NCBI GenBank assembly: GCA_030527285.1
Contig: JAUNBC010000006.1
Span: 1,259-65,258 of the forward strand
DNA from: Bacillota bacterium
GTDB lineage: Bacteria; Bacillota; Dehalobacteriia; UBA4068
Reading direction: 5' to 3'
Length of the DNA: 64,000 nucleotides
In this document: positions 2 through 11,381 of the stretch, piece by piece
How the letters are laid out: each line of letters opens with the position of its first letter
How positions within the stretch are numbered: the first letter of the stretch is position 1
Position numbers and translations under genes: made by a program
The notes under the pieces: generated by a model
Database searches by the model: none
The model's input: only the letters and a program-made list of their open reading frames with translations
Told to the model about the DNA's origin: nothing

Positions 2-41
2 ATTATACCATTATGCGAGTTACATAATCGGTTACATTTTA
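2..41 (-). promoter_or_regulatory. Promoter for a gene beyond the left edge: TAAAATGTAAC-N7-GTAACTC-N9-TATAAT
   Basis: Minus strand reads TATAAT (2-7) preceded by TGG (extended -10). GTTAC repeats at 19-23 and 31-35 on the plus strand. Same architecture as 4678-4717. Confidence 0.7.
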
Positions 42-163: not shown

Positions 164-3100
164 TTAGGCCTTGGAGCGGCTCGCCTTGAAGCTGTATGCG
201 ATGCCCGCCATAGCGGCCAGCATCAGCAGCGCCCACAGCGTCGCCGTTCCGGCGTCGTCGGTTTGCGGCGCGTCGGCCAGCGGGATCTCCTCCTCGATGA
301 TTATCGGCTCAGCCTCAGGCACCGGCTCTTCCGGGATATAGGTCGGCGGATCCGGCGGATTCGGCGGAGGAGGAATGTTCGGGATGACGTTGCGCAGATA
401 ATTGACTACGAACGTACCGGTGGGATTCTCCTTAGTCAGCTCCACTTGCAGCTGCTCCGCGATACCAAGGTTCATGGCGGTATAGTTGTAGCTGTTGCCG
501 CCGTAGACTCTGCTCGCAGCGGGGCTGAAGCCGTAGACCTGCGCGCCGTTCATCTCGCCGTCGTACGACCCGCTTTCGCTGCCGTCTAAGGTAGGCGTAC
601 CGCCATTGATGCTGGTGTAGTAATTATAGGTGACGCCGAGGCTGTACTCGATATTGGGGAAGATGTTATAGCAGGTGATATTCAGCCTGAAGCCGGTTGC
701 GCGCAGATCATCCAGATCGATGCTGCCGCTGCAGGTAGTTGTATCGTAATGCCACGGATTGGGCGCACCCGCGATCGGGTAACCGTTTTCATCCACGCCC
801 GAAGCAGCCTTGGCCGGAACATGATAATTGGTAGTTACAGCGCCCAGGTCATCGGTCTCGATCAGCTCAAAGTTGAGGACGCCAAGCTTATCAGGTACGG
901 GCGGAAGATCTTCCTCTCTCACATTTGCCACCACCGGCACGCCGCCGGTGTTGGCATTGAACGTGTTTATCTCCTCGTTCAACACTTCAACGATTTCCTC
1001 CTGCTCTTCCAGAGCTGCCACGACGTCCCGCAGGAAGCCGAAATACTCGGTCTCGCCGTCTCTCAGCTTAAATTCATAAACGTTCTCCGCCAGCGCAGCC
1101 TCGGCATCCGCCAAAGCCTGGTACAGCGGCTTATAGCTATCAAAAGCGGCGACGCGCTCAGGGACTTCCTGCGGGCTGGAGGAGGCCCACGGAACGCCGT
1201 TCTCATCCACTCCCGAATAAGCGCAGACTGCGGCGATCCGGGCGTCGATTACTGCATTGCAAATCCCGATTGCATCCTTCAATGCGGCCAGCTCAGACCT
1301 GCGCGCAGCTTTCTTCGATTCTAAGTTCTCCAGCTTTGTAGCATAATCCGGATCATCCTCATCAAGAGCAGCAAGTTGCAAATTGAGGCCGTTAAGCACC
1401 GTATCGTCCCAGTCGTCACCGAGCAAAACTTCCCCCAGAACGTAAGCGACCTCTGCATCCGTGAAGGATGGCTCCACATCCAGCTCCTCGCGCAGCTTAT
1501 AATAGATAGCGCTCAGCACTTGCGCCGGATCGTTGATAGGAGCAACGAACAACATCGTGTCTTTCATTTTCAATGCTTCAAATTCGGCTAAAGCATCCAG
1601 ATAGGCGTCGAACAAGGCGCGGTCAGTCTCGTTGATCTTGGCGCTGATCTCAGCTTCGGCGGCCGCAATAGCCGCGCCCAATTCATCCTCGCCCTGCCAG
1701 AAGCGGATGCTGAAGGAGAAGTAGTCGTCCTCGCCCAGCGGCGCGGTCTCACCGGTAGCCAGCTTGGTAACGCTCATGCCGACCTGACCGTAATTGTTGA
1801 CGCAGACGATCTCGATATTATCCGTGATCCTGAGCTCGCTCACATAGTCAGGCTCTTGATTAGCGCCGTCGACCACGTAATAGGTACCGAAATCACTACC
1901 GGTAGTGGTCTCCGTCAGACTGATCAAGTCTCCGACTTGGACGGTGAAGCTCTTGCTTGCGCCGTCAGCCAGGGAGAACGTCTCAGCTTCGCCTTCGTTG
2001 ATGCTCAATTCGAATTCATATTCCGTACCCGCTGCCGGCAGCAGCTCGGAGTCGCCGATGACTTGCTTGGTGACCGTCAAAGTACGCTCCTCGGCTTTGT
2101 TTTGCAGCTCTGCGGGATCAGTGCTCGTAACTTCGGTTTCGTTCATATAGACCTTGCCGAAGCTCACGCTGAAGGAGGAATTAGCCATCTTGGCAAAGCC
2201 CTCGGGAACGGTGGTCTCCTCCAGCATATAAGTCTGGCCGGAGGGCAGGCCGATGATGGAGCCTTTGCCGTCCTCGCCGGTCAAGCTGGAACTCTTACTA
2301 TAAGAAACTCCGCTCGTGGCGGTAAATCCCGCGCCCGGCAACGCGGTATATACGTTCGGCGCTTCAGCGCTATTGCCCGTCTTGCTGAAATTGAAATCGG
2401 CCTGATAGCCGAACACCGTCGGCGAGGTAAAGGCCGTTTCCATCTCGTCGCTCAAGCTGATATTGCCGTCTGTGTCCACATCGCGGAACTGATATTTAAG
2501 CTCCGCGCTGCTGTTAGTGGGATATACGCCGCTTGTAGCGTCCGCTGCGGGACGCGTGCCCGCCGCATAGCCGATGAAGCCGTCAGCCAGCGTATCGAGC
2601 CTGACGCGATAGGTCAGCGAATAATGATACTCAGTCGTAGCGCCGTCCCCGGAGCCGGTGGTAGTACTATTGCGCGAGCTCTGCAGGCGCAGATCCCAGA
2701 CAAAGCTATCGTTATCCGGGTCATAGCGCAATACGCCGCGCGCATTCTCAGCCGTGGCGGCCTCGCTCTCGGTGGTCAGATCGAGCGCGCCGTTCTCCAA
2801 CAGCAGGCTTTGGAAGCCGACGAAATCGACCATAGCGCCCATGGCGTCGGTGACCATCCATACGTCCACGCCCATGGTGATGCTGCCGTTGATCGCTTCA
2901 AAGATGGGCTGTAAGCTCGTCAAGGCGTTACTGGCAGTATAAGCCGTACCGCTGCTGGTGGCTAAGCTATTGAGCAGCGCATTAGCCGTAGTGCCGGCGT
3001 CAAAGGCGATGGTATGCAGCGTAGCGCCATTGTTCTTGACCGCGTTAGCGCCGGCAATAGCGCCCGCTCTATCGGCGTTGTTCATCCGGTTTCCGCCACC

Positions 3101-4015
3101 CCGAATGCCGGTAATGGTTCCGGTTTTGGCCAGGTTAGCTGCGTTCCAATATTCTTTATAAGCGGCCTCTCCGCCATCGACCCAATTCCAGCTAATATTA
3201 CCCCTGTTGCCCATTCTCCAGTAACCGTAGTCGTTATGACCGCGGCAGCCGGTATGATCCTGGCAGCCAGAACTATTTTGAGAAAGAATGGATCTAAACT
3301 CTGTCCAGGGGTCGACCTCATCATTACCCGTGTACGTCGCGTGGAAGGTCGGTACGCCGTCGCTGAGGAATATCACGTGCTTGCTGCAGCCCTCAATGGC
3401 CGCGTCGTTCAGCAGATTGGCGGCTAATTGCAGGCCGCCCTGAGCATTGGTGCCGCCGCTGGCGCTCAGTCCGTTGACAACGCCCTTGGCGGTGGTAGCG
3501 TTTGCAGCGGTGGCAACGTCCTGCCAGCCGGAGTTAACGGTGGCGTCCGAGGCGAAGGAGACGATCGCCAGATAGCGCTTGGCGGTGCTGCCCTCGGCCA
3601 GATCGGAATAAATGTCGATGAAACCGCCTTCAGCAGTCAAGACTGTCTTTACATTCGCCAGGCGGGTGGAATTGTTATTAACCATCGAGCTGGAGGTGTC
3701 GATGACCAGCACCACGGCAGCGTCCTCGCTGACGGAGGTCCAGAGAATATCCTCGGTGGTCTTCACGTCCAGCGTGATATCAAAGACGTTCTCGTATTCG
3801 GTGCCGGCGATAGTCTTGTTGACCGTCAGGCGGCCGGCGTTATCTGTGTCTTCCGCGTGCGGGTCAACGGCGGTAGCGTCAGCGCCGCTGACTATCTGCA
3901 CCGAGCTGGCCGGAGTCGTGGTTTCCGCCAGGGCGACGCCCATCAGCAGCGGGATGACCAGCAGCACGGTCAGCAGCACCAGCAACCCTTTCCTGTTCTT
4001 GATCTTTGCCATCAT
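164..4015 (-). CDS. Sortase-anchored surface adhesin 1: signal peptide, vWA domain, pilin/SpaA-like Ig repeats, doubled-motif LPXTG-type anchor
   Basis: Signal peptide MAKIKNRKGLLVLL; MIDAS DTSSSM; FLSDG; IEEEIPLADAPQTDD then hydrophobic helix and basic tail. Start moved from 4198 to 4015 (RBS GAAAGGGG) because the longer ORF runs through the riboswitch. Confidence 0.85.
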   Translation of the reverse strand: MMAKIKNRKGLLVLLTVLLVIPLLMGVALAETTTPASSVQIVSGADATAVDPHAEDTDNAGRLTVNKTIAGTEYENVFDITLDVKTTEDILWTSVSEDAAVVLVIDTSSSMVNNNSTRLANVKTVLTAEGGFIDIYSDLAEGSTAKRYLAIVSFASDATVNSGWQDVATAANATTAKGVVNGLSASGGTNAQGGLQLAANLLNDAAIEGCSKHVIFLSDGVPTFHATYTGNDEVDPWTEFRSILSQNSSGCQDHTGCRGHNDYGYWRMGNRGNISWNWVDGGEAAYKEYWNAANLAKTGTITGIRGGGNRMNNADRAGAIAGANAVKNNGATLHTIAFDAGTTANALLNSLATSSGTAYTASNALTSLQPIFEAINGSITMGVDVWMVTDAMGAMVDFVGFQSLLLENGALDLTTESEAATAENARGVLRYDPDNDSFVWDLRLQSSRNSTTTGSGDGATTEYHYSLTYRVRLDTLADGFIGYAAGTRPAADATSGVYPTNSSAELKYQFRDVDTDGNISLSDEMETAFTSPTVFGYQADFNFSKTGNSAEAPNVYTALPGAGFTATSGVSYSKSSSLTGEDGKGSIIGLPSGQTYMLEETTVPEGFAKMANSSFSVSFGKVYMNETEVTSTDPAELQNKAEERTLTVTKQVIGDSELLPAAGTEYEFELSINEGEAETFSLADGASKSFTVQVGDLISLTETTTGSDFGTYYVVDGANQEPDYVSELRITDNIEIVCVNNYGQVGMSVTKLATGETAPLGEDDYFSFSIRFWQGEDELGAAIAAAEAEISAKINETDRALFDAYLDALAEFEALKMKDTMLFVAPINDPAQVLSAIYYKLREELDVEPSFTDAEVAYVLGEVLLGDDWDDTVLNGLNLQLAALDEDDPDYATKLENLESKKAARRSELAALKDAIGICNAVIDARIAAVCAYSGVDENGVPWASSSPQEVPERVAAFDSYKPLYQALADAEAALAENVYEFKLRDGETEYFGFLRDVVAALEEQEEIVEVLNEEINTFNANTGGVPVVANVREEDLPPVPDKLGVLNFELIETDDLGAVTTNYHVPAKAASGVDENGYPIAGAPNPWHYDTTTCSGSIDLDDLRATGFRLNITCYNIFPNIEYSLGVTYNYYTSINGGTPTLDGSESGSYDGEMNGAQVYGFSPAASRVYGGNSYNYTAMNLGIAEQLQVELTKENPTGTFVVNYLRNVIPNIPPPPNPPDPPTYIPEEPVPEAEPIIIEEEIPLADAPQTDDAGTATLWALLMLAAMAGIAYSFKASRSKA

Positions 4016-4039
4016 TTTAACTTCCCCTTTCAAAGTTAA

Positions 4040-4127
4040 ATATGGCAGCCGGCTGTCCTGCTCCCGATGCGGGAGTTTAGACCCTTGGCTTTGCGTCGCG
4101 GCGTTTCCGCCGGTTTGCCTTTTCATC
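4040..4127 (-). promoter_or_regulatory. c-di-GMP-I (GEMM-I) riboswitch aptamer
   Basis: GGCAAACCGGCG-GAAA-CGCCGCGACGCAAAGCC...GGGTCTAA...ACAGCCGGCTGCC matches the GEMM-I consensus; ends about 12 nt before the RBS. Confidence 0.9.
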
Positions 4128-4284
4128 ATTTCGCACGCCAGATAGATTTGACGCGGCTTGATAATAAAACTAACCCTGATATCTGAAATAAACTGCAACG
4201 AGCGACATAATGCTTACTGCGAATAACAAAGAGTATCATTGTAGCGCATACGGCCATACGGGGCGATCCCCCAAGTATGAAGTC

Positions 4285-4470
4285 CTATGCTGATTTTACC
4301 ACCTCCGCCATAGCTCCGTCAATAAGTTTTAACAGTTCTAATGCGGAGCGGAAGCTGACAGTCTCCCCCGTATCGCTCCACACCAGTTTCCCTTGCCATG
4401 TGGCATGTTCGCGACCCAGGATCTGAATGACGAAGGTGCTCCGCTCCCTGTCTTTCTTCACGTTGCTCAT
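4285..4470 (-). CDS. Small uncharacterised 61-aa protein (WQG...FRSALELLKLID family)
   Basis: RBS GAAGGGA; clear paralog of the C-terminal half of 9501-9950. Confidence 0.8.
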   Translation of the reverse strand: MSNVKKDRERSTFVIQILGREHATWQGKLVWSDTGETVSFRSALELLKLIDGAMAEVVKSA

Positions 4471-4677
4471 AGTATCATTCCCTTCAACATTGCAGCCGGC
4501 GATAAGACCCGCGCGGCTGCGGGCGCAACGGGCGGCGGATAAGGGACGGGCTCTTATGCGCCGCCATACGGCAAATGAGCCGTGATAGCCTTGCTCGTGC
4601 CCATTATACGGCGCGCGGGGAAATGCCCGATCCCACCCAATAAACTATGCGCCGCCCCTTATCGATATTACTCTTTT

Positions 4678-4717
4678 ATTATACGCATGATAGAGTTACG
4701 CGAATAGTTACATTTTA
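4678..4717 (-). promoter_or_regulatory. Promoter TAAAATGTAAC-N7-GTAACTC-N9-TATAAT driving the 61-aa gene and probably adhesin 1
   Basis: Plus strand ATTATA 4678-4683, GAGTTAC 4693-4699, GTTACATTTTA 4707-4717; same spacing as 2-41. Confidence 0.7.
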
Positions 4718-4982: not shown

Positions 4983-7900
4983 TTAACCGCGGCTGCGGCG
5001 GCGGCCGAACACCACCACGCCGGCCAGAGCCAGCGCTCCGAGCGCCAGCCACAGATAAAGCTGCGCGCTATCACCGGTGGGCGGTACGTCCGCCAGCGGT
5101 ACGTCCTCCTCGATAATGGTTGTAATATCCGTTGTCGGGGCCGGCTCCTCTATAATGACCGTATCAGTCTGCGGCACCACCGGATCAGGGATGCGAATCG
5201 GCTGATCGGGGCCGGGGCCGGGCGGCGGATCCTCCGGGATGATCGGCGTGCTATAGGTGTTGGTCGCCGTCATACCATTGCAAACTGTACTATAATTCGG
5301 GGATACGGTAAGTTCAACAATGCGGTAGCTGATCTCCGCACCCTGCTTGTCATATTTGGGGTAGGTGCCGATAGACTCAGTCCAGTCGCTGCCATCGGCG
5401 CTGCCGCTTATGGTGTGTACGATTTCTACGCCATCCGTGCCCAACTCGCGCACGTCGTTGATATACAGGGCGAAGTCCAGGGACTCGGGGTAGTCATAAT
5501 TCGTGGGGAAGTCGACCCATTTCTTGGTGATAGTCAGCTCAATGTCCTCGCTCAGCAGGTTGACCAGATTTAAGGGGTCGCTCGCCGGCGTGACGTTCGT
5601 GTAATTACTCGGTAAATTCAGCTCCTCCACGGTGTATACGATAGGCGTTATGCCATCCGTATTATACTTGTCAAGGCCCTTAAATACATACTGCCAGCCA
5701 TTGCCCTCATTGAGATCGACCTGAACTCCTACCGGGGCACCATTAGCCAAGAGCTGGATTGTCAGTATATCAGGACGGGTTGTGTAGGCGTTATCATTAT
5801 CCAGCCAAGTCTTAGTCACTTGCACCATATGCTTCAGCGAATTGGTGAAGGTGTAGGCGTAGGTGTTGGTGTCGGTGTTGGTGTTGGTGTTGGTGTCTGG
5901 GAGAGTAACGATGGTGGAATATAAAGGAACATCTTTCTCCACCACGCGGTAGCTGACGCCGTCAAGCTTGGGCGCGTAGAAGGTATGCATCAGCGTGCTC
6001 GTATTTACGGCGCTGCCGGAAGCAACTTCTTGCTCTTCAACGTCGCTCCATTCGATCTCTCCATTAACAACCTCGCCCTTTTGCAGAACGAAGGTGATCG
6101 TCGCCGGCCGGTCGGCGCTGGGGGCTGTTACGCCATTGGTCTCAACTCCGTCATCCCAGATCTTATATACGGGGAAGCTGAGCAGGTCGAGCGTATTGGT
6201 CAGGGTCGCGGTATAGCTGCCCGCGGTACTACCATCGGTGATCACCGCCTCCGCCGGCTTATAGCCGGGAACAACCTCCTCAATGAACACATAGTTGGCT
6301 TCAACTATATCGTTGCCGATCTTGATATATTTCGGCAGGGTGACGCTGAGCTTGTAGTTTTTGCTCGGGTCTGTATCTTTTTTCAACTCGTAGCTTCCGA
6401 GCTTCGTATCGGTAGTAATTCCATCGGTCGTACTGCGATGATAGAGATAGACCGTAACGCTATCGGGACGCAGGCCGAAGTAATCCTCGGTGCTGTCATA
6501 CGTATCATCCCATACCTTACTCAGAGTGACATTGATGGTCTTCAGCGTATTGGTGATGGTGATGATCTTGTCACCATTATCAACAGCCACCTCATCGGTA
6601 TAGCCGACCGGAACATCCTCTTTGATATAATCTCCAGTAAGATCATCATACGCGACCGGCAGGCTCACCGTGGTAGTCCAATTCCCTGCCGGGGTGTTGC
6701 TGGCGGCGAGTGACTGATTGTCAATGATTTTGGTCGGCTGCTCTTTTTCCGGGTCGTCAATGATATCGAATGTGACCGAAGCCGGACGCAGCTTGAAATA
6801 AGCATTGGTCGATGCGCCATTTTCCATAATGCCAGCAATGGTGTCGCCTTTCCATTCCTTGTTCACCGTCCATTCGGTGGCAGGGGGAGTATAGGTGTTG
6901 GTGAGGGTGATGATTTTGCCATTCGCGTCATAAGCGCCATAGGCGAATTTTGAGAAAGCATTAGAGCTACTGAAATTAAGCCCAAGCTTGCCGTCGTTTC
7001 CAACAGTAATAGTCACGCTACCCCGATTACCACTATTACCCATTGTAATTGTTGCCGAGGTGCCAGAGACAAAATCATTGACAGTAATACTACCAAGCTG
7101 GTTGGCATTAGAATGCGCTTGTTTCCAGGCGTTGAACGCCGTGACAAAGGCCGTCTTCTGCGTATCCGTCAATGTGTTCTGCGTCCAGACCTTAGTGTTA
7201 TTGCCCTTGTTCACCATGATAAAAGCAGCGGAAAGATCATTGTACGCCAATTCATTACAGGGGTTTACGACCTCAAGCGACGTGATAGACAGCGCCTTTG
7301 GTACCGGGTCGCCCACTACTGTCATAGTATAATTATCGGGTTCTGTTTCCGTGACGCTGTAATCGTCATACGGCAGGCTGTTCCAGGTATATGTCCAGTT
7401 TTTGCTCGGATCGGTATTCGCACTCAGAGTCACCGGGTCGCCATAAGGGGTTGCGGTTTGTCCGCTTCCTCTATAAAGCTGCACCACAAGCTCCGTGGGC
7501 TGATTGGCCGCCGGATTATTTCCATGATCCCAGAGCTTATTAACAGTAAAGCTGGTGACGGCGTTCACGCTCACCGGCTCGAAAGCGATGACCGTCGGCA
7601 CCTTGAAATTGATGGTTTGCTTGCCACCCTGGATAACGCCGTTGTTCAAGATGGCGTAATCGAGGACGGTGGCGTCATTGGTCGGATAGATGCCCTTGGC
7701 GATCAGCGCGGCAGCTTTCTCGTCGGCGCGGAAATCTGCAGAACGGTCGTTGTCGACGATTTCGTTATAATCATCCAGCGCGTCTCCACGATCCTTGCCG
7801 TCGGTCACGCTGGCATAATAATTGAAGTTGGTAGTTGTGTCGAGCGTGACTTGATACTTCAGCTCGTAATTGTACCAGATTTGATTATTTTTGCCTCCTC

Positions 7901-9134
7901 CCGTTGTCGTCGGGGTAGCTTTACGCAGATCCCAAATTAGCTGATCATTATTGTCGTCGGTAGGCATGGTGACGCCAGTAGCGCCCTCGGTGAGGATGCT
8001 GTCAAACTTGATGTTCGCGCCCATGGGGTCGGTGACCATCCACGCCTCAGCCCAGATGGCAATATTCTCGGAGATCGCTTTAAACTGATTTGCCAGCGTA
8101 GTTGCATTTGCGGCAGTCAGCGCGCAGCCGCTGTTAGCGATGCTGGAAAGATCAGGAGCACTGGCGGCAAAAGCGATGGTATAGATCGTAACACCACTCC
8201 GTTTGAGCGAAGTAGCCACATCCACGCCGGTATCGGTGACGTTCTCGCCCTTAATTTCGGTGAGTGAGTTTCTTTGGCTGGCGATACGCTTATTCGGCGC
8301 GCCGTCGGAGAGCAGTATCACATAGACCTCGTCGATGCCCGCGAGGTCATCCTTGAAAGTACCATCGTTCTGGCGATGGGCGTCGATATTATTCTTCGCC
8401 AGCTGCAGGCCGGCCTGAATATTGGTACCGGTATACAGCTTGTATTTCAAGCCGCTGACCACATCCTGGGCAGCTGCGATATTATCATCCAAGCCGGAAA
8501 GCTCCGTCCAATTCATTTGGCGTTTAGCGTCAGTAGCGAAATGGACGATAGAAAGCAGCCTTTTATAGCTCGCACTGGACGCGCTGGCGGCATAGTCGGC
8601 AATGAAAGCATTGGCGGCGCTGATGGCGGCGCTGATACGCTGCTCGTCCTCCGCCGCATAGACGGAGTCGCCGCTGTTATGACCGTTGGCTGGGATATGA
8701 TAATACTCATCGTCTCCATCACAAAGCGGGCAATCATCACCTTTATAATCCGTGCCTGTGCAGTAACCGCCGCCGGCGGCATCCCACTGCATGGAGACCG
8801 AGGTATCTATCACCAAAGCGACGGCGATATTCTTATCGGTGGGGATACTGGTCAGATCCTGCGTAGTGGTGACCTTGAGCGTGATATCAAAGGTATCCTC
8901 GACCCACTCGCCGCCAGTCGTCTTGACCTGCTCGATGGTCTTTTCTACCTCGACAAGATTGGCGGTTCTTTCGCCGCCCGTATACACGACCTGCGGCCCT
9001 ATTGATGATGGTTGTTGACCTGAACCCCCGCCGCTATGATGTCCATACGATAGCGCGTAGCCGAACAATACCGGCAGCACCAAGACCAGCGTTACTATTA
9101 CCGCGATCAGTTTTCCCCTTCTTTTCGCCTTCAT
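4983..9134 (-). CDS. Sortase-anchored surface adhesin 2: signal peptide, vWA domain, multiple Cna B-type repeats, doubled-motif VPPTG anchor
   Basis: MIDAS DTSVSM; LLSDG; repeats starting V(N/T/S/Y)K.W and ending (L/F/A)TN; IEEDVPLADVPPTGD then TM helix and RRRSRG. Start moved from 9311 to 9134 (RBS GAAAGGAG). Confidence 0.87.
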   Translation of the reverse strand: MKAKRRGKLIAVIVTLVLVLPVLFGYALSYGHHSGGGSGQQPSSIGPQVVYTGGERTANLVEVEKTIEQVKTTGGEWVEDTFDITLKVTTTQDLTSIPTDKNIAVALVIDTSVSMQWDAAGGGYCTGTDYKGDDCPLCDGDDEYYHIPANGHNSGDSVYAAEDEQRISAAISAANAFIADYAASASSASYKRLLSIVHFATDAKRQMNWTELSGLDDNIAAAQDVVSGLKYKLYTGTNIQAGLQLAKNNIDAHRQNDGTFKDDLAGIDEVYVILLSDGAPNKRIASQRNSLTEIKGENVTDTGVDVATSLKRSGVTIYTIAFAASAPDLSSIANSGCALTAANATTLANQFKAISENIAIWAEAWMVTDPMGANIKFDSILTEGATGVTMPTDDNNDQLIWDLRKATPTTTGGGKNNQIWYNYELKYQVTLDTTTNFNYYASVTDGKDRGDALDDYNEIVDNDRSADFRADEKAAALIAKGIYPTNDATVLDYAILNNGVIQGGKQTINFKVPTVIAFEPVSVNAVTSFTVNKLWDHGNNPAANQPTELVVQLYRGSGQTATPYGDPVTLSANTDPSKNWTYTWNSLPYDDYSVTETEPDNYTMTVVGDPVPKALSITSLEVVNPCNELAYNDLSAAFIMVNKGNNTKVWTQNTLTDTQKTAFVTAFNAWKQAHSNANQLGSITVNDFVSGTSATITMGNSGNRGSVTITVGNDGKLGLNFSSSNAFSKFAYGAYDANGKIITLTNTYTPPATEWTVNKEWKGDTIAGIMENGASTNAYFKLRPASVTFDIIDDPEKEQPTKIIDNQSLAASNTPAGNWTTTVSLPVAYDDLTGDYIKEDVPVGYTDEVAVDNGDKIITITNTLKTINVTLSKVWDDTYDSTEDYFGLRPDSVTVYLYHRSTTDGITTDTKLGSYELKKDTDPSKNYKLSVTLPKYIKIGNDIVEANYVFIEEVVPGYKPAEAVITDGSTAGSYTATLTNTLDLLSFPVYKIWDDGVETNGVTAPSADRPATITFVLQKGEVVNGEIEWSDVEEQEVASGSAVNTSTLMHTFYAPKLDGVSYRVVEKDVPLYSTIVTLPDTNTNTNTDTNTYAYTFTNSLKHMVQVTKTWLDNDNAYTTRPDILTIQLLANGAPVGVQVDLNEGNGWQYVFKGLDKYNTDGITPIVYTVEELNLPSNYTNVTPASDPLNLVNLLSEDIELTITKKWVDFPTNYDYPESLDFALYINDVRELGTDGVEIVHTISGSADGSDWTESIGTYPKYDKQGAEISYRIVELTVSPNYSTVCNGMTATNTYSTPIIPEDPPPGPGPDQPIRIPDPVVPQTDTVIIEEPAPTTDITTIIEEDVPLADVPPTGDSAQLYLWLALGALALAGVVVFGRRRSRG
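5862..5897. repeat. In-frame hexamer microsatellite GGTGT(T/C) x6 encoding DTNTNTNTDTNT
   Basis: Six direct 6-bp units read in the sequence. Confidence 0.85.
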
Positions 9135-9167
9135 TCCAACTTCTCCTTTCGCCTTGAAGCTGGAATA

Positions 9168-9252
9168 CCCGGCAACCCGGCCGGCATAGGCCCCTGCCCG
9201 TAGCCCCTGTGGCTTTGCGTCGCGGCGTTTCCGCCGTTTTGCCCTTTTCCGT
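9168..9252 (-). promoter_or_regulatory. c-di-GMP-I (GEMM-I) riboswitch aptamer
   Basis: GGGCAAAACGGCG-GAAA-CGCCGCGACGCAAAGCCACAGGGGCTA...GGCCGGGTTGCC; 27 bp (9210-9236) identical to 4086-4112. Confidence 0.88.
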
Positions 9253-9377
9253 ATTCCGCGGCGGCAGATGGGATTTGCCGCCGCCTGTATGTTATAAAAT
9301 TGCCAAAACATGAAACCGATAATTATGTTATGAAGCGCTCAAAAGCCCACGCGGAGACACGCCTCCACTTATGGAAT

Positions 9378-9406
9378 ATGATAGCAAAAAAAGCCGTCCC
9401 TTTCAA
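9378..9406 (-). promoter_or_regulatory. Sigma-A-type promoter for adhesin 2
   Basis: TTGAAA-N17-TATCAT on the minus strand. Confidence 0.6.
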
Positions 9407-9500: not shown

Positions 9501-9950
9501 TTATTGATTGGAAATCTGGTAAACGCAACCATCTATCAGCTTCAACAGCTCCAGCGCCGAGCGGAAATTGCGCGATACGCCCCGCTCCTGCCACAGCACC
9601 TGCCCCTGCCAGGAGACGTTCTGCCGCTGACGCAGCCGCACGATGAAGGTGGCCAGCTCGCCGCGCTGCTCGCGCACAAGCCGCGCCTCCATAAGCAGCG
9701 GCGGCAGCGGCGGCAGCGCCGGAGCCGCCTTCCGCTCGCTCCGGCCAAAGCTGCGCATCGCCTGCGTGGCCTGCGGCAAGCCCAGGCTCTCGTACAGCTC
9801 GTCCATCAGCAGCAGCGCGCGGCTGATATCGGCAAACTGCTGCGCGCCCGCGGCATAGCAATGATAAAGACGGCCGGCGACCATATGATGCTCAAAGCTA
9901 TCCACGCATAAACAGACGATATTCTCGATCTGCGGTAATATACGATTCAT
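9501..9950 (-). CDS. Uncharacterised 149-aa protein with two internal repeats of the FRSALELL-family domain
   Basis: C-half TFIVRL..WQGQVLW..FRSALELLKLIDG matches the 61-aa protein; directly downstream of the BTAD regulator. Confidence 0.8.
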   Translation of the reverse strand: MNRILPQIENIVCLCVDSFEHHMVAGRLYHCYAAGAQQFADISRALLLMDELYESLGLPQATQAMRSFGRSERKAAPALPPLPPLLMEARLVREQRGELATFIVRLRQRQNVSWQGQVLWQERGVSRNFRSALELLKLIDGCVYQISNQ

Positions 9951-9985: not shown

Positions 9986-11230
9986 TTACCAGCTCACCGT
10001 CGGCGAGAAGGAAACGCGGCCGTCGGCGATGGCGGCGGTATTGGCCGGCGTGATCTTGTATTGCAGGCGCACGCCGCGCCCGTGGTAGCGCTCCTGAAAC
10101 ACCTTGTCGATACGCTGCGAAACGATATCGCAATTCTCCTGCGAAATACCGATCAGCAGCGTCAGGAATTGCGAGGCCGAATAGCGCGTGTACAGGTCGC
10201 CGCGGCGCAGCGCCAGGCGAATGGCCTCATGCAGTCCGTCCACCACCTCCTGCATACGCGGGCCGGCCGTCAGCGCCACGCCGGCGGCGTCGGTGACGGT
10301 GACGCTCATCAGGAACACCGATTGACCGGTGCGCTCGATGATGCGCATGACGAAGCGGTAGCTGTCGATAAAGGTCAGATAATTGCAATAGAAGGCGCCG
10401 CTCTCGTCGCCGGCCTCCTGCAAGTCGCTCTTGATATCGTCAAGTATCGCCCAGGGGAACTGCGCGGCCTCGCGCATTTTCTTATACAGCGCGATCATCT
10501 TCTCGCCCGGGGATACGTTCAGCTCATTGAAGAACATCGAGGTCACCGCGTCATAGGCGGCCAGCGCCTCCTTGAAGCGCTTGAGCTCGAACAGGCAGCT
10601 GATGCGCAGCACCTGCACGTCCTCGTTATACAGGTCGATCTTGGCGGCGCGGTTGCAGATGGCGAGCAGCGTCTGATAATCCTTGCGCTCCGACAGCAGG
10701 CGGTACAGCTCATTGATCGCCTGAATGTACATCTTCTGATAGCGCACCGCTAATATCGACACCCAGCTCTCTATCGCCATACGCGGCAGGAAATCGCCCT
10801 TATACAGCTCCACGGCGCGCGTATAGCCGGCGATACGCGCATCGTCGTCGATATCGGGGCCGGAGGCCTGCTGAAAGGCCTTCTCAAACTCCTCGGTATC
10901 AATGACGGTCGGTATCTCGTTATTCCAAAAATAGACGCCGCGCCGGTAACAGATATAATCATAATCAGGCAGGCCGGCATTGGCCAGCAGCTTGCGCATA
11001 CGGTGGATGATGATCTTCAAGGCATTGCCGGGATTATCAATATCCTCCTCCTCGTACAGCAGCTCGATCAGCGAGTCGCGCGTGGCGCCCTTCTCGCGGT
11101 TGACCAGCAGGTATTGCAGCAGATACATCGCCTTGTTGTTGCGATTCTGCTCGATAGCCTGCGCGCCGTCCTCGGTGGAAATAGTGAAACCGCCAAACAT
11201 GCTGACCCTGATCGTCTCCAATAGAGCCAT
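9986..11230 (-). CDS. SARP-family regulator: winged HTH, BTAD domain and degenerate GGDEF domain
   Basis: IRVSMFGGF...LLQYLLVN...RDSLIELL...IHRMRK (AfsR/DnrI-type wHTH); ELYKGDFL and ELNVSPG (BTAD); LRRGDLYTRYSASQF aligns with RxxD-xxx-RxGGDEF. RBS GGGAGGAG. Confidence 0.88.
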   Translation of the reverse strand: MALLETIRVSMFGGFTISTEDGAQAIEQNRNNKAMYLLQYLLVNREKGATRDSLIELLYEEEDIDNPGNALKIIIHRMRKLLANAGLPDYDYICYRRGVYFWNNEIPTVIDTEEFEKAFQQASGPDIDDDARIAGYTRAVELYKGDFLPRMAIESWVSILAVRYQKMYIQAINELYRLLSERKDYQTLLAICNRAAKIDLYNEDVQVLRISCLFELKRFKEALAAYDAVTSMFFNELNVSPGEKMIALYKKMREAAQFPWAILDDIKSDLQEAGDESGAFYCNYLTFIDSYRFVMRIIERTGQSVFLMSVTVTDAAGVALTAGPRMQEVVDGLHEAIRLALRRGDLYTRYSASQFLTLLIGISQENCDIVSQRIDKVFQERYHGRGVRLQYKITPANTAAIADGRVSFSPTVSW

Positions 11231-11294
11231 AAGCACACTCCTCCCAAGCCAGACTGTTCATGAACGGAAATATAGTATATCCCTATATAAACTA

Positions 11295-11323
11295 ATTATA
11301 CGCAACAGGGTGTTATATGTCAA
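11295..11323 (-). promoter_or_regulatory. Consensus sigma-A promoter of the regulator
   Basis: TTGACA-N17-TATAAT, perfect match. Confidence 0.85.
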
Positions 11324-11359: not shown

Positions 11360-11381
11360 ATGTAACCATATTGCGTAACTC
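11360..11381 (+). promoter_or_regulatory. Third copy of the GTAAC repeat motif, inverted, upstream of the regulator promoter
   Basis: ATGTAAC-CATATTGC-GTAACTC (8-nt spacer instead of 7). Confidence 0.5.

Follow-up and report, generated by a model that had tools for sequence, protein, structure and literature searches.

The box promoters of the window

The window analysed here, a stretch of 64,000 nucleotides corresponding to positions 1259-65258 of contig C31, belongs to a 1.63 Mb assembly of 40 contigs that is 82% complete, so that further copies of the element described below may exist in the genome. The host appears to be an uncultured Clostridia bacterium, Oscillospiraceae-like going by best matches, the closest relatives of one housekeeping-size protein of the window being Oscillospiraceae and other Bacillota metagenome-assembled genomes from rumen and gut. 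Towards its left end the window holds two adhesin genes with cyclic di-GMP (c-di-GMP) riboswitches in their leaders, genes for two members of a family of small proteins, the gene of a SARP-like regulator and two promoters in which a conserved pair of direct repeats, here called the box, stands where a -35 element would be expected. The two box promoters comprise the following elements, in window coordinates:

2-7, minus strand: -10 element TATAAT of the box-1 promoter, with TGG before the hexamer (extended -10), directed leftwards and off the window
17-41, minus strand: box 1, TAAAATGTAAC-CGATTAT-GTAACTC, two direct repeats aTGTAACy with a 12-bp period; weight-matrix score 42.6 bits
4678-4683, minus strand: -10 element TATAAT of the box-2 promoter, with a predicted start site near 4671
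4693-4717, minus strand: box 2, TAAAATGTAAC-TATTCGC-GTAACTC; weight-matrix score 38.2 bits

Read on the plus strand, GAGTTAC-N7-GTTACATTTTA occurs exactly at 17-41 and 4693-4717 and has no other match in the window, even at three mismatches; the expectation from shuffled sequence is 0.02 matches, and none of 100 shuffles yielded two. On the minus strand both boxes read TAAAATGTAAC-N7-GTAACTC-N9-TATAAT, and their spacers are unlike each other. The first-pass annotation of this DNA had described 18 of 18 shared flanking bases around a free 7-nt spacer, followed at 9 nt by a perfect -10 element without a consensus -35, and this description is exact in every respect: the hexamers 17 nt upstream of the -10 elements sit inside the variable spacer and match TTGACA at only one (CGATTA) and two (TATTCG) of six positions.

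Distribution of the box in the genome

A genome-wide scan for the motif, which the first-pass annotation had put forward as a check, returned five promoters of the form GTAAC-N7-GTAAC followed at 10-11 nt by a -10 element, and none for the reversed control. Besides the two boxes of the window there is a third exact copy (18 of 18 bases) at C27:75804-75828, separated by N8 from TATAAT, and two more cores with a -10 element at a like distance lie at C17:8856 (TAATAT) and C5:57396 (TATTAT). GTAAC is a rare word (850 occurrences in 3.27 million positions), so that about 0.22 pairs are expected at each spacing; the observed pairs number five at N7 and one at N8 (window 11360-11381), and none of the remaining spacings between 0 and 20 has more than one. 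With a weight matrix derived from the five sites, these reach 35-43 bits and the next best site of the genome 15.6 bits, a test that is circular for its own five source sites and informative on the absence of sites with intermediate scores.

Aligned with each other, the five sites are invariant only at G-AAC...G-AAC...TA...T, and each carries two direct repeats on the same strand, the word aTGTAACy being doubled in all five. Their -35-position hexamers match TTGACA at zero to two of six positions, and a promoter scan reports no promoter that uses these -10 elements. The -10 hexamer is TATAAT in three of the five sites and TG-extended in three, and the distance to it from the GTAACTC heptamer is 9 bp at four sites and 8 bp at the C27 copy. 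The flanks are unrelated, and hence the box is not a copied repeat element. Another repeated word near the small-protein genes, AATGATACT, has 15 copies genome-wide.

These sites also bear on the notion that the box is the -35 region of a promoter read by an extracytoplasmic-function (ECF) sigma factor, or else a functionless product of chance or duplication, which we regard as highly improbable. GTAAC and GAAAC (as TGTAAC and TGAAAC) do resemble ECF -35 cores, and the C5 copy adjoins an ECF-sigma-like gene. That box, however, is directed away from the sigma gene; more generally, the word is doubled at a fixed period, its two copies being 11 and 23 nt away from the -10 element instead of 16-17 nt, and the downstream element is of the housekeeping type (TGnTATAAT) rather than the CGT type of ECF -10 elements. 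A chance origin is excluded by the window shuffles and the spacing counts of GTAAC pairs, and a duplication relic by the unrelated flanks, the free spacer and the conservation of the box across genera.

The adjacent SARP-like regulator

The first-pass annotation had placed direct repeats of 12-bp period beside a SARP-like regulator, and both are present in the sequence. The regulator gene and its upstream region consist of:

9986-11236, minus strand: regulator P0003, with an OmpR-type winged helix and a BTAD, which jointly make up the SARP domain, and with a degenerate GGDEF domain
11295-11323, minus strand: promoter of the P0003 gene, a perfect TTGACA-17-TATAAT whose -35 matches at six of six positions, an internal contrast to the box promoters without a -35
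11360-11381, plus strand: ATGTAAC-N8-GTAACTC, a box-like site in inverted orientation that precedes the -35 of P0003 by 36 nt and has no -10 element after it; the sole N8 pair of the genome

P0003 is the only BTAD protein of the assembly. Its Pfam domains follow the SARP order of winged helix, then BTAD (Trans_reg_C, PF00486, 26.5 bits; BTAD, PF03704, 52.1 bits). A profile of 41 homologues searched against PDB matches AfsR (E-value 6e-18) and EmbR (4e-12) over positions 7-256, and the GGDEF domains of diguanylate cyclases over positions 288-393 (E-values 1e-7 to 2e-6). The AlphaFold model, with a predicted local distance difference test (pLDDT) score of 88.5, leads to the same families in Foldseek: EmbR, AfsR within its transcription initiation complex (target-relative template-modelling scores of 0.64-0.67; PDB matches 2fez, 8k60 and 8hvr for the SARP part) and GGDEF domains (about 0.6). 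Neither Pfam nor the model contains a REC domain, which sets P0003 apart from response regulators of the PhoB/OmpR type.

In the C-terminal domain, the motif RRGD-LYTRY-SASQF has SASQF in place of the catalytic GG(D/E)EF, and RRGD five residues upstream; R344 and D347, the R and D of an RxxD motif, are invariant in the 41 homologues. With its predicted GGDEF fold, its lost catalytic motif and its RxxD, the C-terminal part has the apparent layout of an I-site c-di-GMP receptor, and this degenerate domain probably makes the activity of P0003 depend on c-di-GMP. Our literature search returned no paper on a regulator that joins BTAD/SARP to GGDEF, none that brings together SARP, Clostridia and c-di-GMP, and none describing the box. 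The site at 11360-11381 may be autoregulatory or may be the relic of a divergent small-gene promoter, the latter reading being prompted by two relatives (G007 and G038) in which a small-protein gene diverges from the regulator gene with a box between the two.

Box and regulator in related genomes

The comparison covered 40 related genomes, of which 13 encode the regulator and 27 do not, together with seven loci fetched for metagenomic homologues of the regulator (including L042, L044, L045, L110, L111, L112 and L113), about 290 kb of loci being scanned in all. For four of the seven metagenomic homologues, with identities of 52, 47, 46 and 41%, the small-protein gene next after the regulator gene is immediately preceded by a box of this architecture, and a loose box pattern gave no further match over the roughly 290 kb of fetched loci. 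A further search for related loci, by the regulator profile or by the single protein, gave no match. The species representatives of the same family, with regulators of 29-37% identity, likewise have a small-protein gene beside the regulator, and there the direct repeats have an 11-bp period and stand 10 nt from the -10 element. The sites are:

L042: AAAATGAAAC-N7-GAAACCC-N9-TATTCT
L044: GAAAC-N7-GTAACTG-N9-TATCGT
L110: GTAAC-N7-GTAAT-N11-TATACT
L113: GAAAC-N7-GAAAC-N10-TATGAT
G007: GCAAC-N6-GTAAC
G038: ATAAC-N6-GTAAC
G003 and G020: ATGAC-N6-GTGAC
G010 and G023: GTAGC-N6-GTAGA

A search with the 11-bp form, RYRAC-N6-GTRAC-N10-YATNAT, yields 26 matches in nine of the 13 regulator-positive relatives (seven in G004, six in G021, five in G007), against three matches in the 27 regulator-negative genomes, all three in G+C-rich, coding-like sequence; the reversed pattern, used as a control, matches five times in 41 genomes. 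Box and regulator thus co-occur with a Fisher p of 3.9e-4, falling to 1e-5 once G010 and G023 with their GTAGM variant are included. Conservation extends to positions that the pattern did not fix: C6 in 25 of the 26 matches, T11 in 24, and TG before the -10 element in about 20. The resulting 11-bp-period consensus is GTAACCGAAAT GTAACCAAAAT ATGT TATAAT. As a rule, one copy adjoins the regulator gene and precedes the gene of the conserved small protein. The form found in our own genome, AAWGTAAC-N7-GTAAC, has matches in the 40 relatives that lack a -10 element at the box distance, all of them in coding-like sequence except one (L034).

The repeat period separates along the same lines as the regulators. 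Among the boxes beside regulator homologues, the period is 12 bp in L042, L044, L110 and L113, and 11 bp in L006, L007, L010, L011, L012 and L015; all box-bearing regulators at least 41% identical to P0003 go with 12 bp, and all those of at most 37% identity with 11 bp. Since the period splits by regulator identity, the extra base is a trait of the clade and not an error. The repeat words, too, co-vary with the regulator clade. The recognition helix varies with the group of repeat words (NALKIIIH, KALQVLVT, NALKNLVY and NALKTLLY), a co-variation that is no more than suggestive. The first-pass annotation had linked the box to the adjacent regulator, and the comparative evidence (a sole BTAD protein, synteny, co-occurrence and co-variation) speaks for that link, with P0003 as the predicted binding protein.

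Around the regulator homologue of L110 and its type IV pilus cluster there are, in addition, six intergenic palindromes ATATTTCGAAAT(AT), at 5296-6000 and 7686-8131, which are probably the operator of another factor.

Genes behind the box promoters

The five promoters would define a regulon made up of two small paralogous proteins, two riboswitch-gated genes of adhesin type and a surface-assembly cluster:

Box 1: c-di-GMP-I aptamer at C31:1122-1214 (77 bits), then a signal-peptide (secreted-protein) gene at C31:1-1092
Box 2: a G+C-rich leader of 200 nt, the 61-residue protein P0001, a c-di-GMP-I aptamer (74 bits) and adhesin 1
C27 box: c-di-GMP-I aptamer (73 bits), then a surface protein with five Cna_B domains
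C5 box: P0004, a P0001 paralogue of 62 residues, at C5:57498-57686, plus strand
C17 box: a secreted protein of 146 residues, a transglutaminase lipoprotein, a sortase and type IV pilus genes (T2SSF, DUF4860, T2SSE)

A third riboswitch-gated adhesin, adhesin 1, thus sits downstream of P0001. The first-pass annotation had expected the regulon to extend beyond the left edge of the window, and the 1258 further bases of the contig do contain the aptamer and secreted-protein gene listed for box 1. The remaining features of this part of the window are:

164-4015, minus strand: adhesin 1, a surface protein with VWA, GBS104-like immunoglobulin-type and SpaA tip-pilin-like domains
4041-4129, minus strand: c-di-GMP-I aptamer in the leader of adhesin 1 (73.9 bits, against a gathering score of 35)
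4285-4470, minus strand: P0001, with a ...TWQG...FRSALELLKLID domain; first gene after box 2 and, in relatives, the main conserved target of the box
4471-4671, minus strand: P0001 leader, which separates the box-2 promoter from P0001 and folds as a long imperfect hairpin (marginal z-score, -1.85)
4983-9134, minus strand: adhesin 2, with VWA and Cna_B domains
9168-9253, minus strand: c-di-GMP-I aptamer in the leader of adhesin 2, the second of the window
9501-9950, minus strand: P0002, the 149-residue long form of the small protein, 35 nt downstream of the regulator gene, its C-terminal half being the P0001/P0004 domain

Adhesin 1 starts at the ATG at 4015; the TTG at 4198 given in the list of open reading frames is an artefact and lies upstream of the aptamer. 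For both adhesins the longest reading frames (164-4198 and 4983-9311, minus strand) span the aptamer, so that with starts at 4015 and 9134 automatic calls would come out about 60 codons too long. Adhesin 2 has an ordinary promoter without a box, TTGAAA-17-TGnTATCAT at 9378-9406, with a -35 match of five in six. A promoter-like sequence, TTGACG-18-TGnTAAAAT, also occurs at 4293-4322 on the minus strand, inside the 3' end of P0001, and could yield a box-independent transcript of adhesin 1 that starts about 157 nt before the aptamer. The leader of P0001, 200 nt long as opposed to 30-65 nt in its paralogue and in relatives, is unique in the genome and has no match in an Rfam search.

Box targets are consistent across genera, consisting of small-protein genes and several signal-peptide proteins. 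In G010 and G023, too, c-di-GMP-I aptamers accompany the regulator: G010 has three tandem aptamers (78-84 bits each) at L007 3758-4135 (G010:C3), divergent from the regulator gene, and G023 has two at L006 1-230. The box promoters of G004, G021 and G007 have no c-di-GMP aptamer downstream, and hence the pairing of box and riboswitch is not general. An unexpected member of the regulon is found at L075 (G004:C38), where a perfect box (GTAACCGTTTT twice; 1501-1532, minus strand) precedes a flavin mononucleotide (FMN) aptamer (1138-1268, minus strand); the gene behind this riboswitch encodes a probable riboflavin transporter.

The small-protein family

The domain shared by P0001, P0002 and P0004 (...TWQG...W...FRSALELLKLID) is present in 2,438 clusters at 50% identity, in forms of about 60, 150 and 290 residues, and in the loci examined it is almost always found beside the SARP-GGDEF regulator. 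The structural model (pLDDT 79) is a soluble domain of about 50 residues with three strands and a helix, for which Pfam and NCBIfam hold no family and PDB no matching fold (best E-value 0.76). P0002 is probably co-transcribed with the regulator gene, and it is a guess on our part that the small protein serves the regulator as partner or as feedback element. Small riboswitch-linked proteins of Clostridioides difficile, which PMC13724677 describes as membrane-associated and downstream of riboswitches, were considered as relatives and set apart, by that description, as another family.

Proposed mode of action

A published rule for SARP operators sets the direct repeats at a spacing of 11 or 22 bp and leaves 8 bp between the 3' repeat and the -10 element. 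The afs box (-40 to -19) overlaps the -35, and a side-by-side dimer contacts the first 8 bp of each 11-bp repeat as well as sigma region 4 (PMC10936776). The first-pass annotation had remarked on the discrepancy between 12 and 11 bp, and it is the distant relatives that obey this rule, exactly (heptamer GTAACCA, 8 bp, TATAAT), the present clade having 12 and 9 bp. On the assumption of a start site 7 nt after the -10 element, the downstream repeat TGTAACTC falls at about -29 to -22, as in AfsR, and the upstream repeat at -41 to -34, one base farther out.

We therefore think it likely that P0003, the SARP-like protein encoded at 9986-11236, has the box as its operator and acts there as an activator. 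Two adjacent P0003 protomers would each bind one aTGTAACy repeat by the OmpR-type winged helix, so that the dimer, at about -41 to -34 and -29 to -22, would occupy the place of the -35 element. From there it could recruit housekeeping sigma-RNA polymerase, or adapt it, to a good and often TG-extended -10 element, much as AfsR does at the afs box. Through the degenerate GGDEF/RxxD domain this activation would depend on c-di-GMP, and transcripts from two of the five promoters, and possibly from box 2 by read-through past P0001, would then meet a c-di-GMP-I riboswitch. The same signal would in this way be checked twice, at initiation and at the riboswitch.

Several observations weigh against this model. 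The three TG-extended -10 elements among the five promoters are of a kind able to work without a -35, for which an activator is not strictly needed, and the period of 12 bp and -10 distance of 9 bp depart from the canonical 11 and 8. Three of the metagenomic homologues (L045, L111 and L112) have no box within the fetched locus, and two of the regulator-positive genomes (G017 and G024) have none with the patterns tried. The co-variation of helix and word is confounded by phylogeny, the word groups being clades as well. Finally, the genome encodes three ordinary OmpR-type response regulators elsewhere.

The first of these points leads to the same protein at the same site as a repressor, the dimer at -41 to -22 blocking self-sufficient TG-extended promoters until a signal such as c-di-GMP arrives. 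The frequency of TGn before the -10 element (three of our five sites and about 20 of the 26 in relatives), the -10 hexamers at or near consensus and the overlap of the box with the footprint of the polymerase are all in line with such an arrangement, which we nevertheless hold to be unlikely: SARPs are not known to act as repressors, and the N-terminal half of P0003 is a SARP activator module by sequence and by fold, including the BTAD that contacts the polymerase in AfsR. Furthermore, the downstream repeat at -29 to -22 is placed as that of AfsR is in the activation complex (PMC10936776).

The last point raises the prospect of another reader of the box, be it one of the three response regulators, the small TWQG/FRSALELLKLID protein or P0002. 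These response regulators supply three further Trans_reg_C proteins in the genome, and the small-protein gene is linked to the box as tightly as the regulator gene is. We judge this to be rather improbable, in that direct repeats at about one helical turn replacing the -35 are the known mode of OmpR, PhoB and SARP winged helices, whereas the small domain, made up of three strands and one helix, has no match among DNA-binding folds. Moreover, OmpR-type response regulators are expected in most Clostridia genomes irrespective of the box, whose presence follows the SARP-like gene over the 40 genomes.

The evidence thus supports reading the box as a new variant of the SARP/PhoB-type direct-repeat activator site, belonging to an undescribed SARP-GGDEF family from Clostridia of gut and rumen. 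Nearly all known SARPs are activators of antibiotic pathways in actinomycetes, and their operators keep to a strict 11-bp rule. For a SARP-like family that would govern surface adhesion in uncultured gut and rumen Clostridia, the present analysis provides a sequence-defined operator, a predicted regulon and a phylogenetic distribution. In addition, the 11- and 12-bp clades amount to a natural experiment on the spacing tolerated by a side-by-side dimer, and the box offers a handle on the function of a large unannotated family of small proteins. Should the GGDEF-like domain sense c-di-GMP, P0003 would represent a new type of c-di-GMP transcription factor, with one transcript reading the signal both at the promoter and at the riboswitch. 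Taken together, these features might point to an undescribed class of c-di-GMP-responsive activators, a proposal that we advance tentatively and that would combine a SARP module with a dead I-site sensor of GGDEF type, direct-repeat boxes in place of the -35 (with 11 bp extended to 12 here), a coherent feed-forward of two checkpoints with riboswitches over adhesin and pilus genes, and a small protein as universal first target and as partner or feedback element.

Comparison with known systems

The closest parallel is provided by the SARP promoters of Streptomyces (the afs box of AfsR and the targets of ActII-ORF4 and DnrI), which share with the box promoters the tandem repeats on one strand over a poor or absent -35 and a cognate regulator with an OmpR-type winged helix and a BTAD, for which a side-by-side dimer is to be expected here as well. 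They differ from the present case in that our -10 elements are at or near consensus, and TG-extended in three of five sites. The host here is not an actinomycete, and in place of antibiotic clusters the targets comprise genes for adhesins, pili and a small protein. P0003, for its part, has a degenerate GGDEF domain where the Streptomyces proteins have NOD/TPR domains or nothing. The pho boxes of PhoB/OmpR regulators also present two direct repeats at about one helical turn, replacing the -35 some 10 bp upstream of the -10 element, and are bound by a head-to-tail dimer of winged helices that contacts sigma region 4, a further likeness. Unlike those regulators, P0003 lacks a receiver domain and a partner kinase, and carries a BTAD and a GGDEF-like domain instead.

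At its C-terminus, P0003 resembles I-site receptors of the PelD and PopA type in its GGDEF fold, its lost catalytic motif (here SASQF) and its RxxD five residues upstream; none of those receptors, however, is fused to a SARP DNA-binding module, and the binding of c-di-GMP by P0003 is a prediction. As for the targets, sortase-type and pilus surface proteins placed behind c-di-GMP riboswitches are also found in C. difficile, in the form of CD2831, CD3246 and pilA1 (PMC6200980, PMC6447587). What distinguishes the present system from these riboswitch-controlled adhesin and pilin genes is an extra level upstream of the riboswitch, formed by a dedicated box and, as predicted here, by an activator that resembles a c-di-GMP sensor.
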